This document shows, piece after piece, positions 293 through 23,440 of a stretch of DNA of 54,838 nt. Both the position numbers and the translations under genes were made by a program. This DNA is from a virus (taxonomy: Duplodnaviria; Heunggongvirae; Uroviricota; Caudoviricetes). The notes below the pieces were generated by a model. The model saw only the letters and a program-made list of their open reading frames with translations, made no database searches and was not told the origin of the DNA. Positions within the stretch are counted from its first letter, which is position 1, and the number at the start of each line of letters is the position of its first letter. The stretch spans positions 64,001 through 118,838 of IMG/VR virus record IMGVR_UViG_3300044981_000022, one strand, 5' to 3'.

Positions 293-841
293 ATGAAGAT
301 TTTTCGCAGCTTATTTCTAGCCGGTGTATTGATCTTCGGTGCCGGTGCGATTGCTCAAGATAAACCCGCTCCTATTGTTGAATATGATTTAGGTAGTTGT
401 GGTGGAAGAGATTTTACTGTAGAGCATGTTGTCATAGACAAGAATGCTAAAACAATAGCATTCGACTACTTCATGCCATCACCGGACCAGGTTCAGAAGA
501 ACACTGATATGTTGGTGATGACAGATTATAAAGAAACTGTCTCAAATAACGATGTTGTCTTCGAAGCGAAATTAGATTATACTGATCCGGATGAAAAGAA
601 ATTGTATCATTTCGGATTGAAAGGTGTGATACGCGGTCAACGAGCTATCGCGGTGTTTGCAGTCAACGGAAAGATTGGTAGACTGTATTACGGCCAGCTA
701 GGTAAGGTCGATGACATGGTTAAGGTTGTTTTGGACCGAGCTAGTTTTTGTGATTATCTTCACACAGCAAGAGATAGCGACGATTTGATTGAGAAGTTAA
801 ACGGATTTTTAAATGCTTCGGATGATACCGGAGCAAAATAA
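293..841 (+). CDS. Exported hypothetical protein with Sec-type signal peptide
   Basis: 182 aa; N-terminus MKIFRSLFLAGVLIFGAGAIA-QD has basic, hydrophobic and AxA segments. Confidence 0.7.
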   Translation: MKIFRSLFLAGVLIFGAGAIAQDKPAPIVEYDLGSCGGRDFTVEHVVIDKNAKTIAFDYFMPSPDQVQKNTDMLVMTDYKETVSNNDVVFEAKLDYTDPDEKKLYHFGLKGVIRGQRAIAVFAVNGKIGRLYYGQLGKVDDMVKVVLDRASFCDYLHTARDSDDLIEKLNGFLNASDDTGAK

Positions 842-847
842 TCTTAA

Positions 848-1180
848 TGGTAAGCCGGACAATCGCGGAGCAAATGTAAGTGCGCTTCGAGGAAGTTCAG
901 GACTACACAGACAGAGAGCCGTGGAAGTTGCGGACGCAGTAATGCGATGGGTAAGCCTCGGTAGTTTCACTAGGAAGAGCGGTTTCAGCGAAAGCTGAAA
1001 GGCCCGTGAACGGTGAAATTCATTGGAGCCGGGAAACTCCACTCTCGTAGCAATCTCAAATAGGGCTGGAGCCAGTCTGAGGCGATGATAGCCGGGTTGA
1101 GAGCTTAGACGGATGGTTGTCATTCGCTGTATCTGGGTAAAACCGATTGGCGATACAGAATCCTGGCTATAGGCTAACCA
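848..1180 (+). ncRNA. rnpB: RNase P RNA, bacterial type A-like, phage-encoded
   Basis: CR-I GAGGAAGTTCAGGA (889-902) pairs with CR-V ACAGAATCCTGGCTAT (1155-1170) to form P4. Also seen: P1 TGGTAAGCC/GGCTAACCA, P2 GACAATC/GGTTGTC, P3, P9 CGCA-GTAA-TGCG, P12 TTTCAGC-GAAA-GCTGAAA, the GGGAAACTCCAC...GTAGCAA segment, L15 GGT, and CR-IV AGACGGATG. Confidence 0.92.
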
Positions 1181-1238
1181 GTAAGATATTATATTTGCGT
1201 AAACGGACATATATGGATGTTTAAGCGAATAAGATCGC

Positions 1239-1324
1239 GGAGCGGTGGCGAAATGGTAGACGCACGAGTTTGCTAAACTCGCAACCGCAAGGTTGTGCAG
1301 GTCCAAGTCCTGCTCGCTCCGCCA
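1239..1324 (+). tRNA. tRNA-Ser(GCT)
   Basis: Acceptor GGAGCGG/TCGCTCC, G73, encoded CCA, anticodon loop TT-GCT-AA, long variable arm; T-loop TCCAAGT (C55). Confidence 0.9.
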
Positions 1325-1333
1325 AAATTTTAT

Positions 1334-1422
1334 GGAGTGCGGCGACCGATGGCGGTCAACTGTCTTGAAAACAGCGCCTCGTTACTTTGTAGCGGGACAG
1401 AGTTCGATTCTCTGGCTCTCCT
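1334..1422 (+). tRNA. tRNA-Ser(TGA), atypical (T73, no encoded CCA)
   Basis: Acceptor GGAGTGC/GCTCTCC (one T-T mismatch), D-stem GACC/GGTC, loop CT-TGA-AA, 8-bp variable stem, T-arm CAGAG-TTCGATT-CTCTG. Confidence 0.8.
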
Positions 1423-1423
1423 C

Positions 1424-1510
1424 GGAAGACAGCGCAGACGTTCTGCAAACGGTTTCGAACACCGTGCTATCCTGAAAAGGATAACTGTTAAACTCAGTTC
1501 TCTTCCTCCA
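1424..1510 (+). tRNA. Non-canonical tRNA-Ser(CGA)-like, probable 8/4 (allo-tRNA-like) fold
   Basis: GGAAGACA/TCTCTTCC + T + CCA; D-arm GCAG-ACGTT-CTGC; anticodon arm ACGGT-TTCGAAC-ACCGT; variable arm TATCCT-GAAA-AGGATA; T-arm ACTG-TTAAACT-CAGT. Confidence 0.72.
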
Positions 1511-1551
1511 GTTTCACGGTCCGAGCGTCTAAAAGCGCGGAGACCGCCAAA

Positions 1552-1626
1552 GCATCGGAAACCAATCGGCTAGGTAGAGGTCTGCAAAACTTCTTTTGGT
1601 CAGTCCGACTCTGACCCGGTGCTCCA
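1552..1626 (+). tRNA. tRNA-Cys(GCA)
   Basis: Acceptor GCATCGG/CCGGTGC, T73 (Cys identity), CCA; loop CT-GCA-AA; T-loop TCCGACT (C55). Confidence 0.88.
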
Positions 1627-1633
1627 AGTTTGT

Positions 1634-1708
1634 TGCCATGTCGTCCAAATGTGAGGACAAGCGGCTTTGACCCGCTGAATCCTGGTTAGAATCCAGGCGC
1701 GGCATCCA
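1634..1708 (+). tRNA. tRNA-Gln(TTG) with U19-A56 elbow
   Basis: Acceptor TGCCATG/CGCGGCA, CCA; AGCGG-CTTTGAC-CCGCT; D-loop AAATGTGA; T-loop TTAGAAT. Confidence 0.85.
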
Positions 1709-1716
1709 GTTTCTGT

Positions 1717-1791
1717 TCCAATGTCGTTCAAATGCGAGGACAAACGATTCTGAATCGTTGAATAAAGGTTGGAATCCTTTCGCTGGAACCA
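1717..1791 (+). tRNA. tRNA-Gln(CTG) with C19-G56 elbow
   Basis: Acceptor TCCAATG/CGCTGGA, A73, CCA; AACGA-TTCTGAA-TCGTT; D-loop AAATGCGA; T-loop TTGGAAT. Confidence 0.85.
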
Positions 1792-1905
1792 AATTAGCCA
1801 TCGTAAGTCTGGTAGTTCGGGAAAACGCGAGTGGGATCGCCCGAACGAAAAGGACTCCATCGTCTTAGTAGATACGATGCCCACTCCATATTTTAGTTAT
1901 CGACA

Positions 1906-2151
1906 ATGAGAAAACTATCTGAATTGTCGAGAGCATACGGCCCTCGTACATTGTGTTGCCAAGAAAGTTACAACCACTGCTTGTGCAAGACAGCTATGAT
2001 TGATCCCGATGTAGAGTTTTTCTCTACCAAAGAACAAAAGATAGTTATCATCAAAGAACTACCAAAAGATTTAAATCACGGCGGCACTCCTGTAACAGGT
2101 GAGGAACTTCAACCGTGGGTGGCAAAAGTCAAAGCAAGATTCGGGAGATAG
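1906..2151 (+). CDS. Hypothetical protein (start uncertain)
   Basis: 81-aa ORF filling the gap within the tRNA array; no recognisable motif. Confidence 0.4.
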   Translation: MRKLSELSRAYGPRTLCCQESYNHCLCKTAMIDPDVEFFSTKEQKIVIIKELPKDLNHGGTPVTGEELQPWVAKVKARFGR

Positions 2152-2152
2152 A

Positions 2153-2284
2153 ATGCACTTTATCAGAGCACTAGAGATTTTGGGTTTGTTATTTGCAGGT
2201 GGAGTTGCAACATCTTTCGCTGAGTATAAATTTCAGTATTCGTTGTTTATGACAATTGCTCAGTTATTCGGTAAAAAGTTTTAA
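2153..2284 (+). CDS. Small membrane peptide
   Basis: ATG at 2153 after a GGGAG RBS; MHFIRALEILGLLFAGGVATSFA is hydrophobic. Confidence 0.55.
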   Translation: MHFIRALEILGLLFAGGVATSFAEYKFQYSLFMTIAQLFGKKF

Positions 2285-2293
2285 AAGTTTAAT

Positions 2294-2382
2294 CGGGGCG
2301 TAGGTTCGTAACTTGGTAGCGATCCGCTTTTGGAAAGCGGTGCGGAAACGCCTTGGAGGTTCAAATCCTTCCGTCCCGACCA
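2294..2382 (+). tRNA. tRNA-Pro(TGG) with long variable arm
   Basis: C1-G72, A73, CCA (Pro identity); CCGCT-TTTGGAA-AGCGG; extra arm GCG-GAAA-CGC; T-loop TTCAAAT. Confidence 0.85.
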
Positions 2383-2391
2383 TTTTATTAT

Positions 2392-2471
2392 CCGGGAATA
2401 GTGAGTTACAAGTGTAGAATACCGAGGATTAGTCTTCGGAGATGCGGCCTAGCGACCCGCGACCTGGACCA
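2392..2471 (+). ncRNA. Degenerate tRNA-like element ending in ACCA
   Basis: 80 nt; partial acceptor CCGGG/CCTGG, central stem CCGAGG/CTTCGG, T-like stem GCGG/CCGC; the anticodon loop is irregular. Confidence 0.45.
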
Positions 2472-2478
2472 GTTTAAT

Positions 2479-2556
2479 CGTGGAGTAGGGAAGCCCGGAG
2501 TTCCCGCTTCTTTCGGAAAGAAGAGAGCGTTGGTTCAAATCCAACTTCCGCGACCA
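2479..2556 (+). tRNA. tRNA-Pro(CGG)
   Basis: Acceptor CGTGGAG/TTCCGCG, A73, CCA; CTTCT-TTCGGAA-AGAAG; 5-bp D-stem GGGAA/TTCCC; T-loop TTCAAAT. Confidence 0.88.
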
Positions 2557-3428: not shown

Positions 3429-3701
3429 ATGCCACAATCAGTATCTCAACCGCTTACATTAAATGTAATAGCGGTAACAGCTTTAACAATCGGCACTACC
3501 ACTTTGCCGAATGCTATAGAATTTTCTCCATACTCGCAGCAGCTTGTTGCGATAGGTGGTACGGCACCGTATACATGGTCTATTTCCGCTGGTTCTCTTC
3601 CAGCTGGTTTAACTATGTCATCAGCAGGTTTGATCAGTGGTGTTTCATCTGTATCAGGCTCATTTAGTTTCACAGCACAAGTTGTAGACTCAGGCGCATA
3701 A
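3429..3701 (+). CDS. He_PIG-type (putative Ig) domain protein
   Basis: ALTIGTTTLP...YSQQLVAIGGTAPYTWSISAGSLPAGLTMSSAGLISG...GSFSFTAQVVDS is the typical He_PIG repeat pattern. Confidence 0.85.
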   Translation: MPQSVSQPLTLNVIAVTALTIGTTTLPNAIEFSPYSQQLVAIGGTAPYTWSISAGSLPAGLTMSSAGLISGVSSVSGSFSFTAQVVDSGA

Positions 3702-3725: not shown

Positions 3726-5420
3726 ATGTCTCAAACAACTCAAAAAAGTTTCAGTATCGTCGTTGCCTCATCAGAGGCAAAGATGGCAAACGAAATTGTA
3801 ATTCAGTGGAACTCTAGTCCTACTCCGGTTTCAGGGTACAATGTGTATCGTGGAACATTACCGGGTAACGAAGGTTCAACGCCGTACAATGTAGGTCTTG
3901 TAACGGTGGCACCAAATATGGTTCTATCTTCGGTAGCTCCGCTATCTGGAGGTGCACCGTACACAGTAACATCTGTAGCTACATCTACAGGTGGTACTGC
4001 GCTTTACACGGGCACATTTGCTAACGGAGCAGCTAATGCGTTAGCAGGAAAGAATTTTACCATAACAGGATTTACTAATGCGGTAAATAACGGAACATTT
4101 CTATGTACCGGGTCAACAATTTTGACTATCATATTAGTTAACACATCTGCTACAGCAGAGACAGCCACAGCATTTGCTAGTCAAGTTGTTGCTTCGGGTT
4201 CTGCTGTCTATATAGGAAATGTACCAGGTGGCGCATCTAGTGGATTCGCCGGGTTTACATTTGTAATTTCTGGTTATTCAAACGCAGCAAACAACGGTAA
4301 GTTTAACTGTGTTGCAAGCACTGCAACTAGTTTGACATTGTTAAACGCAAATAGTATTGCAGAAACACATAACGCTATAGCTAGTCAAGTTCCTCAGTTT
4401 ACTGATATAGCTGTTTTCCCTGGAAAGGTATACAGTTACGAAGTAACCGCCGTAGCTGGCGGGATTGAGAGTGCCGATTCTATTGGAATTCTTTCGGCTG
4501 CTGTGCCTTTTGGCTTTACACCTATTGCTCCTGAATTAGGAACATTAGATGGGTTCGTTATCTTGGCTGCTACCGCTGTAACAAATACCGGAGCGACAAC
4601 CGCTTCTGGCGATGTCGGTGTATATCCAGGAACATCTATCACAGGGTTCGGAGCGCCCGCTGCTATCAGTGGCGTATTCCATCTAGGTGATTTTGTTGCT
4701 GCTGCCGCCCAAGGTGCTGCTCAACAGTTATATAATACTTTGCAAACTATGACAGTAACAACTCCGATTGTTGCCGATCTAGGTGGTCAGACATTAGTTC
4801 CCGGAGTATATAATTCAGGTAGTTCAATTGGTGTCACAGGAACCTTGACTTTGGATGGCGGTGGAAATCCAAATGCAGTTTGGATATTCCAAGCCGGATC
4901 GAGTCTAACATTTGCTGCAAACACAGTTCTTATTAACGGAGCGCAAGCGGCTAATGTGTTCTGGGTAGTAGGAAGTTCAGCAAGCATTGCGGCAAATAAT
5001 ATTTTTGCTGGAACTATTGTAGCTCAAGCAAGTATTACAGTGCAAACAGGTGCTCAAATTGCTGGACGTTTGTTAGCATTAGGTGGAGCTATAACATTGA
5101 TTGATGACACAATCATTTTGTTCAATGCTGTTCCATTTGCTGGAACATGGCTCCCGCTTACAAATTATGGATTCGGATTAGCAATATTCGATTGCGGAAC
5201 AGATACCTTCCAGAGAGTTTTGGTAGCTGGAATATCTAGTTCAACTAGACCGAATTTTAGTGCTATACCGGGTGCCCAGACAACCGATGGTTCAGTAGTC
5301 TGGGAGGCTTTGTCACCAGCATCTGTAATACTTCAGACACAATTACCTCCGTCACCGCCTAATGTGCCTCCATCAGCACCAGCGGCTCCGACCGGATTGA
5401 TTATTTCGTTAGAAAATTAA
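3726..5420 (+). CDS. Multidomain virion/adhesin protein: FN3-like + beta-barrel repeats + DUF3494 ice-binding-like domain
   Basis: WNSSP..GYNVYRG and YSYEVTAV (FN3); FVILAATAVTNTG...GDVGVYPGTSITGF...DLGGQTLVPGVY...LTLDGGGNPNAVWIFQ...AQAANVFWVVGSSA (DUF3494). Confidence 0.85.
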   Translation: MSQTTQKSFSIVVASSEAKMANEIVIQWNSSPTPVSGYNVYRGTLPGNEGSTPYNVGLVTVAPNMVLSSVAPLSGGAPYTVTSVATSTGGTALYTGTFANGAANALAGKNFTITGFTNAVNNGTFLCTGSTILTIILVNTSATAETATAFASQVVASGSAVYIGNVPGGASSGFAGFTFVISGYSNAANNGKFNCVASTATSLTLLNANSIAETHNAIASQVPQFTDIAVFPGKVYSYEVTAVAGGIESADSIGILSAAVPFGFTPIAPELGTLDGFVILAATAVTNTGATTASGDVGVYPGTSITGFGAPAAISGVFHLGDFVAAAAQGAAQQLYNTLQTMTVTTPIVADLGGQTLVPGVYNSGSSIGVTGTLTLDGGGNPNAVWIFQAGSSLTFAANTVLINGAQAANVFWVVGSSASIAANNIFAGTIVAQASITVQTGAQIAGRLLALGGAITLIDDTIILFNAVPFAGTWLPLTNYGFGLAIFDCGTDTFQRVLVAGISSSTRPNFSAIPGAQTTDGSVVWEALSPASVILQTQLPPSPPNVPPSAPAAPTGLIISLEN

Positions 5421-18978: not shown

Positions 18979-21318
18979 ATGCCATCAGTCAGAAAGAGCC
19001 GTGATAAACAGCATGTTTCAGAAACTAATTTCTTAGGCGAGAGAATCAAGGACCAGTTACCATTTTGGCCCGATTACGTTGAGAAATGGGATCAAGAAGC
19101 AGACGGTAAGAGATTTAGATCAGAAGTTCTTTCTTTGACAGAATTGTGGAATTTGTATTTAGGCTACACCCAAGACTCAGAATTAGATGACAAAGGTAGT
19201 ATAAAAGCCAAGACAATCGCCCCTGTAAACCCTAAAAAGGGATACGGCATAATCCCTATTAGAACCATAGCGTTACCGGGCCGATTCTGTGAACGCGCCG
19301 TTGCTCACAAAGAACATCAACACGGGTATCTTCATTTTCATCAGTGGTTATACGCCCGTGATCAGGCTCGTAAGGATTTGTATTGGTTCGGTAAAGAAGT
19401 CTTTCAAATGGACTTTGTGGAACATGTCCACAGAGTTACCTGCAATCAGTTTGTTCAAAAAGATTTCGATGGCGTATTCGAAGAAGGATACGACCGCAAT
19501 GATTTAAAAGTTGCGTTTAATCGTCAGAGTAGAATTCCTAAGATATGGGTCCCGACCGGAGAGTATGACAACGAATCTTCTATTAAGTACGACGAAAACT
19601 TCAAGATAGAAGACTTAGGTCACTACATTCCCGATCCGAATCACGCAGAGTTAAAAGTTAATTTAGCTCGCACAATGATCTTGCTGGACCCTCGTGGTTT
19701 CTTCAAAACATTTACAAACATTCTAGATACGGTTCAATGGATTATTAATTGTCCCGATGTACGTATTCTTATCATGAGTGGTACGTATAAACTGACTTTA
19801 CAGTTTTTGAGTTTAGCAAAAGGAAAGTTCTATCTTCCGCCAGGAAGAAAGCCAGAGTACTTTCATTTATTATTTCCAGAGTATGTAGACAGAAGCGCAG
19901 ACGGTGATTCTAAGGAACCTTTAGTTGTTTTGAATCGAAAGCACGATTCTCCTGATCCGACTTTGGGAATCATGTCAATTGGTTCTTCGTTGTCTGGTTT
20001 TCACTGCGATGTCCTGAAGTTCGATGATATCGTCACCGATGAAAACTGTAATACAGAAGAAACCCGTCAAAGTTTGTTAGATAAAGCAGACGGTGCGGTC
20101 AATCTTTTGATGCCTTGGGGCTGGCACGACATCATTGGAACTAGATATTTTCCAAATGACTACTACGGCCAAGCCGAAGCTAAGTACAAAGAAAGTCCGG
20201 AAGATTTCAATTTAAAACTTTTTACACGAGCGGCATGGGTAGTTAAACCAGAATTCGAAGAGATCGAGAAGAATAGTTTGTTCGATCTCAAAGAACATAT
20301 GGTTGTCTTGACATTTCCAGAACATAAGACTTGGGCGCTCCTGCGTAAAGATTTATCGAAGAATGAGAAGAGCTTCCGTTGTCAACAATTGAATCAGCCG
20401 GTTTGGGGAAATGAAAAGAGCATTAACTTTGAGAGAATTGTTTTGGAATCACATAGATTCCGAAACGGCGTTCAGATTACTTTACAAGAAGTGTTGTTAG
20501 CAAAACCGGATTATGTTTATGGCGCTATCGATTTAGCTAGAGAAAATAAGGATCAATCGGATTATACCGCGCTGGCTGTTGGCAAGGTGTATCAGTTTGG
20601 ATTATTTCAGAATTTCTTAACCCCTGACGAACTAGCTAGTGCTATTAAGTTAGATGGCGAAGACGAAGGAAAGTGGGTACTTGTCATTCTTGATGTTCAA
20701 TTCGGAAAGTGGTCTCAAACAGAGATCGCTAATCGAATTGCAGCAATGCACAATAAGTGGCAATGTAAGTCTTGGTATGGAGAAGACACCGGCGGTCTAG
20801 CGTTGTTGAAAGAAAAGATCGCTGATGTATCAAAGACTACATACGGATGCTGGCCTTATATCCGATGGGATGTCCCTAGCAACTCAGAAGGTGCTAAGAG
20901 AAATCGTATCAAAGGTCTAGAAACCCTACTCAAAGCCAATAGATTATATTTTCTAACAGACACATGGAACGAAAAGGTCTTCGAGGAACTAGAGAAATAT
21001 AAAGGCCAAAAGAGTACTCGATACTTTAAAGACGATGTTCCCGATGTTCTGTCGCAGTTGACCAAATTTATTCCTAGTTTGGTAACATTATCAAAGAAAG
21101 ATATGGAACAGCAGGCTCTTCAAAAGCAGGCTGAGTACAACGAATACATCCGTAGAGAGATAAAGAGAGTTGTCTTCGGAGATAACTCTGGTGGGTTCGG
21201 AATGAATTCATCACAATATCTTTCGTATGGAATGGAACTACCCGACCAACAATCCGACAATACCCCGATGAGTGATATCGGTAAGAAGATTTTTGGCGGA
21301 AACGGGATAAGAATATAG
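18979..21318 (+). CDS. terL: Terminase large subunit
   Basis: Walker A-like MILLDPRGFFKT, Walker B LKFDDIV, GTRY coupling motif, RNase H-like nuclease (AIDLA...SDYTA...DDVPDVL); lies upstream of the portal. Confidence 0.9.
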   Translation: MPSVRKSRDKQHVSETNFLGERIKDQLPFWPDYVEKWDQEADGKRFRSEVLSLTELWNLYLGYTQDSELDDKGSIKAKTIAPVNPKKGYGIIPIRTIALPGRFCERAVAHKEHQHGYLHFHQWLYARDQARKDLYWFGKEVFQMDFVEHVHRVTCNQFVQKDFDGVFEEGYDRNDLKVAFNRQSRIPKIWVPTGEYDNESSIKYDENFKIEDLGHYIPDPNHAELKVNLARTMILLDPRGFFKTFTNILDTVQWIINCPDVRILIMSGTYKLTLQFLSLAKGKFYLPPGRKPEYFHLLFPEYVDRSADGDSKEPLVVLNRKHDSPDPTLGIMSIGSSLSGFHCDVLKFDDIVTDENCNTEETRQSLLDKADGAVNLLMPWGWHDIIGTRYFPNDYYGQAEAKYKESPEDFNLKLFTRAAWVVKPEFEEIEKNSLFDLKEHMVVLTFPEHKTWALLRKDLSKNEKSFRCQQLNQPVWGNEKSINFERIVLESHRFRNGVQITLQEVLLAKPDYVYGAIDLARENKDQSDYTALAVGKVYQFGLFQNFLTPDELASAIKLDGEDEGKWVLVILDVQFGKWSQTEIANRIAAMHNKWQCKSWYGEDTGGLALLKEKIADVSKTTYGCWPYIRWDVPSNSEGAKRNRIKGLETLLKANRLYFLTDTWNEKVFEELEKYKGQKSTRYFKDDVPDVLSQLTKFIPSLVTLSKKDMEQQALQKQAEYNEYIRREIKRVVFGDNSGGFGMNSSQYLSYGMELPDQQSDNTPMSDIGKKIFGGNGIRI

Positions 21319-21319
21319 A

Positions 21320-23440
21320 ATGAGCGAACCGCTATCACAACACGCCGCTGAGACTTTAGATAAGCTTTCAGTCACACCAGTTGGTGAGATCACCGAAAAA
21401 GAAATGAAGAAGGACCCCGATACCGGGGTTTATATGTTTTCGGACGAGGCTGCGTTAAAGATTGTTCTAGAAGATGCGGCTCGTGCAGATAACTACGCGA
21501 ACATAAATCAGTGGGCAAGCTTATGGACCCAAAGTGATTTGATTTTACAGAGTCCACAAGGTACATCGGCTTTCGATGGCGGAAGCGGGCTACGTGCTAA
21601 TGTTCCTAAGTTTACGTTGTCTAATCATTTAAGCAGCATTGTTCCTAAAGTTGTCGAGGGATTGTTCTACGAAGACCCTCCGTTTCTTCTTCGTCCACGT
21701 CCGGGAACTAAACCGGAAGTCACCCGTGCCAAAACTGCGTTGTTTTCGGCGCAATTATGGGACATGGGATTTCGAAAAGAAATGGAACGCGGAATATTCC
21801 AGATGGCGTTGTTGGGCACAGGAGTATTCAAGTGGGGCTATCTAGAGCACGATGACAAGCTGAAGAAAGCTCGTCGTTTGACAAAGCAAGCGGAGATTCA
21901 GTCAATTGTTCCTGTTCCGCCTATAGATACTGCGGACTCCGACGACTACGAAATTTACACAGATGTCGTAAAGATTAGCCGACCGTGGATTAAGTATACA
22001 GACATCCGTACTGTGTTAGTAGACCCTGGCTGCCGTGTCGGAGACATTCAAGAAGCTAAGTGGGTTGTCTATCGAGATTATGCGACCTACGATGATTTGA
22101 ATGCACTAAGAAACGTACCGGGATACACAATTCCGAGTGAAAATGATTTGCGTTCATTCTTCATGTCGAACACCACAACTCCTGGTGATAATATTACTAT
22201 GATTATCCCAGAAGGTATGCGTGGATTCTTGCAGCATGCTCTTCCGAGAAATTATCGATCATCTACAGATAGTCTACAGAACTCATTAGAGATTCTAGAG
22301 CGTTGGGATAGAGATAAGGTTATTGTTGTTTTGGCTTTCAACGGTCAGAATATTTTGATTCGAAATGAAGCCAATCCATACGGAAAGATTCCGTTCTATA
22401 GTGCAAATTGGCGTGACCTTCCAGATGCATTTTACGGGCAAGGTTTGGGTCAATTAATAGGCGCAGAGCAAATCGTTGAGCAAGGGATAACTAACTTAGC
22501 ACTTGATCTATTAGCATATGGCCTACAGCCAACCGCTGTTCGAAAGAAGGGCTTTAACGTCCCTACTCAGAACACCAGATGGAAGCAGGGTGGAATTATC
22601 GATGTTGATGACGACGTTGATAAGGCATTTAAGTTCCTTCAGATGCCTAATGTTCCGGGTGAAGCCTGGGCATTTATTCAACAGTCTCAGGCAACTGCTG
22701 CGGCTACATCCGGTGCTAACGAGCAGGTTATGCAGGGTGCTGCGTCTCAAGGCATTCGATCAACTGGTATGCGTTCTGCAACCGGAGCTAATTTAGTCGG
22801 TCAAGCCAATGCATCACGTCTAGACGGTCCTAGCGGTCGTTTGATCAATCAGGTTTTCGAACCTTGGTTATATCAGATGGACGAATTAAATAACGAACTT
22901 CTTCCAACGTCAGTTCTACGCCGTGTTCTAGGCGAAGAAATGGGACAGGCGTATATGGGAGATCATATCGACTTTCGTAATGCGAAGTTCGAGTATGAAG
23001 TTCTGGCCGGAGCGCATTTGGGCGCAAAGAAGGAAATGGCCCAGGCGTTACCGACAATAATTCAACTCCTAAATAACCCAACCTTCATGAAGAGTGTAAA
23101 TGACTCTCATTGGCAGTTTGATGCAGTAGCAATTTTCAAAGCATTTACGGACGCGGCTGGTTGGAAGTTCAGTCAAGACTTCTTGGTCAAGATGACTCCG
23201 GATCAGATAAAGCGTTACGAACAGAATTCACCTGCTGCTTTGCAGGCGCAGCAAGCCAAGTCACAGCAAGCAATGGCGCAGCAACAGTTTCAGCAGCAAC
23301 AGCAGTTAGAAGATCAGAAGCAACTCGGAAAGGCTGGAGCAGAAGTTCTTCGCGCAGCTACCGAGCACAGTCTACAATCCGAAGCTACTGGAGAGCCAAG
23401 TAACTCTCCAGAGGCGTTCGGCGCAACAACTACACTTTAA
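21320..23440 (+). CDS. Portal protein (P22-like)
   Basis: 706 aa after terL; LGTGVFKWG, NPYGKIPFY...FYGQG, Q-rich C-terminal barrel-like tail. Confidence 0.85.
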   Translation: MSEPLSQHAAETLDKLSVTPVGEITEKEMKKDPDTGVYMFSDEAALKIVLEDAARADNYANINQWASLWTQSDLILQSPQGTSAFDGGSGLRANVPKFTLSNHLSSIVPKVVEGLFYEDPPFLLRPRPGTKPEVTRAKTALFSAQLWDMGFRKEMERGIFQMALLGTGVFKWGYLEHDDKLKKARRLTKQAEIQSIVPVPPIDTADSDDYEIYTDVVKISRPWIKYTDIRTVLVDPGCRVGDIQEAKWVVYRDYATYDDLNALRNVPGYTIPSENDLRSFFMSNTTTPGDNITMIIPEGMRGFLQHALPRNYRSSTDSLQNSLEILERWDRDKVIVVLAFNGQNILIRNEANPYGKIPFYSANWRDLPDAFYGQGLGQLIGAEQIVEQGITNLALDLLAYGLQPTAVRKKGFNVPTQNTRWKQGGIIDVDDDVDKAFKFLQMPNVPGEAWAFIQQSQATAAATSGANEQVMQGAASQGIRSTGMRSATGANLVGQANASRLDGPSGRLINQVFEPWLYQMDELNNELLPTSVLRRVLGEEMGQAYMGDHIDFRNAKFEYEVLAGAHLGAKKEMAQALPTIIQLLNNPTFMKSVNDSHWQFDAVAIFKAFTDAAGWKFSQDFLVKMTPDQIKRYEQNSPAALQAQQAKSQQAMAQQQFQQQQQLEDQKQLGKAGAEVLRAATEHSLQSEATGEPSNSPEAFGATTTL

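Follow-up and report, generated by a model that had tools for sequence, protein, structure and literature searches.

The locus and its genomic setting

The RNA described here is located near the 5' end of the window—the whole stretch of DNA that was analysed, 54,838 nucleotides of a tailed-phage genome—and lies between a 182-residue open reading frame and the last six genes of a tRNA array (Table 1). It is matched by cmscan to the Rfam family RF00010 (RNaseP_bact_a) over model positions 1-367, i.e., the full model, with an E value of 1.7e-29, and is the sole RF00010 match across the 118,838-bp genome. The score of 100.2 bits barely reaches the gathering score of 100, and the posterior probability of the alignment is low in the P12-P14 part. 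The preliminary description had named a type-A RNase P RNA at 848-1180 from the letters alone; the covariance model bears this out, and these coordinates coincide exactly with the outer pairs of P1. That the phage genome encodes an RNase P RNA homologue beside its tRNAs is supported, and the segment is most likely a functional gene for an RNase P RNA of a phage-borne type-A lineage, as judged by its sequence and that of its homologues.

Table 1. Features of the RNA locus in window coordinates, followed by loci on other viral contigs
Feature	Position	Strand	Basis or remark
182-aa ORF, signal-peptide-like N terminus	293-841	+	stop codon ends 6 nt before the RNA
RNase P RNA gene (most likely), phage-borne type-A-like lineage	847-1185	+	RF00010; fold backed by covariation, 8 sequences
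P1-to-P1 core of RNase P RNA	848-1180	+	
P1	848-856/1172-1180	+	
P2	858-864/1115-1121	+	
P3	866-889	+	
CR-I and P4 5' strand, GAGGAAGUUCAGGAC	889-903	+	direct reading; P4 pairs 894-902, U897 bulged
P5	903-906/1047-1050	+	
P6 5' strand CAGAC, J5/7	908-912	+	pairs with 1075-1079
Specificity domain, P7-P12, without P13/P14	914-1046	+	cmscan; RNAfold of interior; P7, P8 and P9 covary
P7	914-918/1042-1046	+	
P8	919-933	+	
P9 with GUAA loop (939-942)	934-948	+	
P10/P11	949-958/1031-1040	+	
P12, one long hairpin with GAAA loop (990-993)	959-1030	+	RNAfold
P15-P16-P17 arm	1054-1102	+	cmscan, RNAfold, covariation
P6 3' strand GUCUG, P17 loop	1075-1079	+	pairs with 908-912
L15 GGU	1095-1097	+	
CR-IV, AGACGGAU	1107-1114	+	directly 3' of P15
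Extra P19-like hairpin in J2/4, 33 nt	1122-1154	+	RNAfold, -10.3 kcal/mol
CR-V and P4 3' strand, ACAGAAUCCUGGCUA	1155-1169	+	direct reading; P4 pairs 1161-1168
tRNAs Ser(GCT), Ser(TGA), Gln(TTG), Gln(CTG), Pro(TGG), Pro(CGG)	1239-2556	+	ARAGORN
Large terminase	18979-21318		PHROGs
Portal protein	21320-23440		PHROGs
Apparent miniature RNA	L019:456-629		~175 nt, same P4 strands
Apparent miniature RNA	L076:666-840		~175 nt, same P4 strands
Apparent miniature RNA	L116:9851-10075		about 175 nt, same P4 strands
Apparent miniature RNA	L036:6254-6467		214 nt, same P4 strands
Apparent miniature RNA	L047:8645-8903		259 nt, same P4 strands
YrlA-like matches (sub-threshold) or tmRNA	L022:3857-3968, L116:9298-9372, L047:11354-11466, L112:6292-6675		

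The IMG/VR record of this genome carries direct terminal repeats and belongs to the 100% complete class; an exact terminal repeat of 127 bp was confirmed. A whole-genome ARAGORN run lists 31 tRNA genes at genome 56473-66556, each on the + strand: 25 lie upstream of the RNA (genome 56473-63836) and six downstream, and the RNA takes the slot between tRNA-Arg(CCT) and tRNA-Ser(GCT). The earlier placement of the RNA at the head of the tRNA array was mistaken, as the gene sits inside the array and merely the window begins there, whereas the distance of 58 nt to the first downstream tRNA was right. The structural-gene setting proposed at the same time applies in part: terminase and portal genes are present, but some 18 kb downstream of the RNA. 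The other points raised there, i.e., the checks for a genuine phage contig and for a link between RNase P RNA and tRNAs in related phages, and the statement that no rnpA gene is visible, are borne out by what was found. In three independently assembled relatives (G002, G005, and G006, with terminases 56%, 67%, and 52% identical), the RNA occupies the same slot, in the order Trp, Arg(TCT), Arg(CCT), RNA, Ser(GCT), Gln, Gln, Pro. Because of the terminal repeats and this shared slot, misassembly is excluded. A six-frame search of the whole genome gave no match to the rnpA family PF00825.

The tRNAs of the array encode their 3'-CCA in 29 of 31 cases and have a U at position -1 in 20 of 31, which fits two elements of the RNA described below, its L15 GGU and its invariant GCAA. 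Type-A enzymes read these two substrate features with L15 GGU and with the J5/15 adenosine. Most array tRNA genes (genome 56473-66556) also carry an AGUUU or GUUU trailer directly after the encoded CCA, possibly as a common signal for 3' processing. The frequency of promoter-like and terminator-like sites around the RNA does not exceed that in shuffled sequence; co-transcription of the RNA with the tRNA array is, for this reason, presumed.

The 182-residue open reading frame upstream of the RNA has no match in Pfam or PHROG, and a first search for relatives in viral contigs found none. Local tblastn yields weak homologues of 37% (L051) and 31% (L126) identity, both placed before the RNA, and none in L130; the frame is probably an unrelated passenger gene. 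It was considered as a candidate RNase P protein, against which the signal peptide argues. Farther downstream, an ORF with a He_PIG Ig domain (3429-3701) precedes the gene of a 564-residue protein (3726-5420), which features a complete ice-binding-like domain (PF11999, E 7.9e-51).

Anatomy of the RNA and covariation of its fold

The helix map integrates the cmscan alignment with local folding by RNAfold and direct reading of the sequence (Table 1). The type-A framework that had been proposed stands for P1-P6, P8-P9, P12, P15-P16, L15 GGU, and CR-I, CR-IV, and CR-V, but not for P13. This helix is absent, as are P14 and P18, and cmscan deletes model segments of 17 and 24 nt, the P13 segment being deleted. 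The P12-P14 region folds as a single hairpin in RNAfold, and the 24-nt segment, missing at CR-IV, is P18. In the close relative L051, hairpins are still present at the P18 site; P18 is dispensable in some bacteria (PMC8172020). The conserved regions CR-II/III (J11/12-J12/13) have diverged: the ACAGAAA and GGGUGAAA motifs are unmatched, and a CAUUSRAG motif, conserved inside the subgroup of the window RNA, replaces them. The hairpin inserted in J2/4 differs in sequence and length among homologues, with an unrelated hairpin at this place in six of eight. Within this insertion, CUGUAUC (1129-1135) is the complement of GAUACAG (1152-1158), a stretch that contains the conserved ACAG of CR-V; the two might pair in an alternative way, at the expense of the active fold. 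A AACUUAUAACGUG direct repeat, present twice around a hairpin, occurs in the J2/4 insertion of the relative G005 (L130:1770-1815).

The pseudoknot helices P4 and P6 are both fully complementary in the window, P4 with U897 as its single bulge. Since the Rfam model does not contain P4, its pairing is evidence independent of the RF00010 match; P6 lies outside the model as well. The Rfam consensus for CR-I and CR-V reads GAGGAAAGUCCGGgC ... ACAGAACCCGGCUUA, and the window has GAGGAAGUUCAGGAC ... ACAGAAUCCUGGCUA, with three upper-case consensus positions differing per P4 strand. The bacterial P4 consensus GGAAAGUCCGG / CCCGGCUU is replaced by GGAAGUUCAGG / UCCUGGCU, at unchanged strand lengths and with the bulged U in its usual place. 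Four pairs are changed and all are still paired: A-U to G-C, G-C to U-G, C-G to A-U, and G-C to A-U. The compensatory P4 changes noted before are, hence, real, and the homologues add further covariation. The first two of these pairs flank the bulged U. The pairs at this position form the metal-binding heart of the ribozyme, and activity can therefore not be assumed.

Homologues were collected from IMG/VR, starting with a scan for the P4 5'-strand 15-mer. The bare scan of viral contigs gave at least 118 matches, mostly by chance, from which blastn and nhmmer picked the true homologues; pattern scans requiring both P4 strands brought further ones. Against RF00010, L022 (on a 265-kb contig) and L131 score 170 bits, L129 165, L051 112, L130 94, L115 80, and L123 76 bits. 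Seven homologues from phage-type contigs were aligned with the window RNA by MAFFT, and the helix map was then counted on the eight sequences. Standard pairs occupy 89% of the pair cells, compared with 34-39% in controls with the 3' partners slid by one to three columns—a percentage that is inflated by deriving the map from one row, which leaves the counts of double changes unaffected. Two-sided changes occur in 34 of 60 pairs, P4 and P6 included, at a covariation score of 0.536; the slid controls give 4-13 such pairs and scores of at most 0.12. None of 500 shuffles attains any of the observed pairing or covariation measures. The alignment is imperfect in P1, P2, and P5 of some rows, which can only lower the support. 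RNAalifold, run independently, finds compensatory changes in 32 of 57 predicted pairs. As judged by these measures, the fold is clearly under selection, and decay or recent capture from a host is disfavoured because the aligned homologues exhibit covariation rather than decay.

All eight P4 pairs are formed in all eight sequences. The CR-I/P4 5' strand is invariant except for position 899, which forms A-U, U-A, or G-C with 1164. In P6, three of the five pairs covary, with the variants UAGAC/GUCUA, UCAAC/GUUGG, GGACA/UGUCC, and GAACA/UGUUC, and covariation extends to P7, P8, and P9 of the specificity domain. Among the conserved elements, the window RNA keeps the bulged U, ACAGAA, AGAnGnAU, GCAA, and L15 GGU. 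GCAA is invariant in all eight sequences; in L15, G248 and G249 are invariant and T251 is kept in six of eight (A in L131 and L022). In type-A enzymes, L15 GGU is the pairing site for the 3'-CCA of the tRNA, and the conserved adenosine of GCAA is taken here as the equivalent of E. coli A248. The homologues with scores of 165-170 bits keep P18 and carry the same P4 signature; the rewriting of P4 is for this reason no sign of general decay.

A phage-borne lineage and its distribution

RNAs with the P4 signature of the window RNA differ widely in size, and all of them lie in tRNA arrays of large viral contigs. Five small ones (Table 1), found on viral contigs of 121-364 kb, feature the catalytic half with almost no specificity domain and score 40-47 bits against the archaeal model RF00373; they look like miniature members of the phage lineage of the window RNA. 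At the other end, on a 482-kb viral contig (L052:6336-6890), the P4 strands lie approximately 540 nt apart, which suggests a member with a large insertion, perhaps an intron or another inserted element. Arrays of other large phages that bear RNase P RNA also hold sub-threshold matches to YrlA, a Y RNA-like RNA, and a tmRNA.

Cellular genomes were scanned with two patterns, both comprising the two P4 strands and an AAAUAGG anchor at limited spacings, in one genome per species across 185,579 prokaryote species. In the size range of L022, the scan gave no match, and in the size range of the window RNA it gave one, on a 72.7-kb contig binned with the alphaproteobacterial MAG G003. This contig is phage-like: its RNA sits in a tRNA array near ORFs matching PHROG families. 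The MAG has its own rnpB on a separate contig, at 277.6 bits and with a canonical P4. The P4 signature is common to unrelated phages and differs from this cellular rnpB, and absence of the lineage from cells is supported, although not proven, by the scan.

Among cultured phages, Stenotrophomonas phage vB_SmaS-DLP_6 (DLP6, KU682439.2) carries an unannotated member of about 240 nt at about 105.78-106.02 kb (L134:1465-1705), between a hypothetical gene and tRNA-Arg(CCG). Its P4 is UUCGCGAC/UCGCGGCU, with a further P4 pair inverted, and Rfam misses it at E <= 0.01. Tunturiibacter phage Tunturi_3, which has the closest terminase among cultured phages (25% identity), lacks an RF00010 match. Searched by blastn, the window RNA and the L022 RNA have no match in 50,697 GenBank phage records, and a 174-nt member of the lineage has none in GenBank phage records either.

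Taken further, these occurrences could mean that tailed phages with large tRNA arrays keep an ancient RNase P lineage of their own with a rewritten P4, active with host RnpA or protein-free, which would free the maturation of phage tRNAs from the host enzyme. This is a tentative reading and, on present evidence, a doubtful one. If such RNAs did act independently of the host, they could serve, e.g., once the host RNA has been lost following shut-off or while the tRNA supply is under attack by a defence system; on this reading, the window RNA would count among the large members of a size series that goes down to approximately 175 nt in other phages.

Proposed function and relation to known systems

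The favoured interpretation, given a probability of roughly two in three, is that the RNA is an active RNase P RNA that uses host RnpA to trim phage pre-tRNAs, thereby adding or safeguarding processing capacity in infection. As read from sequence, the RNA would be transcribed with the 31-tRNA array on the same strand, cut from the precursor, and folded into a complete catalytic domain (P1-P6, P15-P17, CR-I/IV/V) with a reduced specificity domain (P7-P12). It would then bind host RnpA, a partner proposed because the phage has no rnpA, and would remove the 5' leaders of phage pre-tRNAs by the canonical type-A route: L15 GGU would pair with the genome-encoded 3'-CCA, and the adenosine of GCAA would meet residue -1, mostly a U. 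For the phage, the benefit would be RNase P capacity that is added or secured during infection. The two enzyme forms put forward in the preliminary description, a hybrid holoenzyme with host RnpA or an RNA acting alone, are likewise predicted forms.

Two other roles can be assigned to an intact RNA of this kind. The first is that of a decoy or regulator, in which the fold and the binding surfaces are kept, the rewritten P4 is inactive, and the RNA titrates host RnpA or pre-tRNAs, throttling or redirecting host RNase P. The two P4 pairs beside the bulged U indeed differ at upper-case Rfam consensus positions, the changes are fixed throughout the phage lineage, and, with no rnpA in the phage, the RNA would compete for the host protein. 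This role is nevertheless unlikely: all P4 changes are compensated, and the bulged U, ACAGAA, AGAnGnAU, GCAA, and L15 GGU are more than a decoy needs to keep. Moreover, the strict placement within tRNA arrays fits a processing role, and the changed positions are reportedly N in the three-domain CR-I/CR-V consensus of Chen and Pace 1997. The second is that of an active ribozyme with an altered target range, the specificity domain being remodelled for phage substrates such as tRNAs with an unusual elbow or tRNA-like Y RNAs instead of general tRNA maturation. The replacement of CR-II/III by CAUUSRAG, a motif conserved in the subgroup, speaks for such a role, but the majority of the 31 tRNAs resemble normal type-A substrates in their encoded CCA and the U at -1, and the lineage members devoid of a specificity domain point to relaxed rather than new recognition; this role is considered unlikely too. 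An origin by chimeric assembly, or by recent capture of a host rnpB fragment now in decay, as the borderline Rfam score and the loss of several helices might suggest, is hardly credible for a complete genome with terminal repeats, a slot of the RNA that is shared with three relatives of independent assembly, covariation in place of decay, and a P4 signature common to unrelated phages and unlike the canonical rnpB of MAG G003.

Few ribozymes occur in all cellular life as RNase P RNA does; it is regarded as a housekeeping function of the host, and phage tRNAs as dependent on it. Full-text searches of literature outside subscription journals gave no description of a virus that encodes an RNase P RNA. 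The ribozyme as such is known; what is new is its viral lineage, in which P4 is rewritten and the specificity domain reduced. If trimming of phage pre-tRNAs by this RNA proves true, the translation gene repertoire of phages would grow from tRNAs, tmRNA, and modification enzymes to a tRNA-processing ribozyme. An active RNA would also provide natural compensated P4 variants and a natural size-reduction series for structure-function work, and would pose the testable question of hybrid enzymes formed by viral RNA and host protein. The small member in the cultured phage DLP6 makes experiments feasible.

Compared with bacterial type-A RNA (rnpB, E. coli M1 RNA, RF00010), the window RNA features the same P1-P12, P15-P17, P4 and P6 pseudoknots, CR-I/IV/V, L15 GGU, and GNRA loop on P9. 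It differs in being viral, in its position in a tRNA array of a genome devoid of rnpA, in four compensated P4 pair changes, the diverged CR-II/III, and the extra J2/4 hairpin, and in the lack of P13, P14, and P18.

Archaeal type-A RNase P RNA (RF00373) lacks P13, P14, and P18 too, and it is this model that gives the smallest phage members their highest scores, 40-47 bits. In the window RNA, however, the bacterial P15-P17 arm is retained together with its CCA-binding GGU, and the bacterial model fits best. Archaeal RNase P enzymes need four or five proteins, whereas none of the archaeal RNase P proteins is encoded in the phage.

Reduced RNase P RNAs are also found in CPR bacteria, plastids, and cyanelles: helices of the P13, P14, and P18 type are lost, the catalytic core is kept, and model thresholds are often lowered for detection (PMC8172020; PMC4264200). 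Those RNAs are the sole essential copy, whereas the window RNA is an extra, viral copy alongside that which the host presumably has.

Theta/HDV-like ribozymes adjoin phage tRNA genes as well, with a proposed role in tRNA maturation (doi 10.1101/2023.06.13.544163), and resemble the present case as phage RNA genes next to tRNA genes. They are small and self-cleaving and act in cis on one transcript, whereas RNase P RNA is a trans-acting enzyme with multiple turnover.
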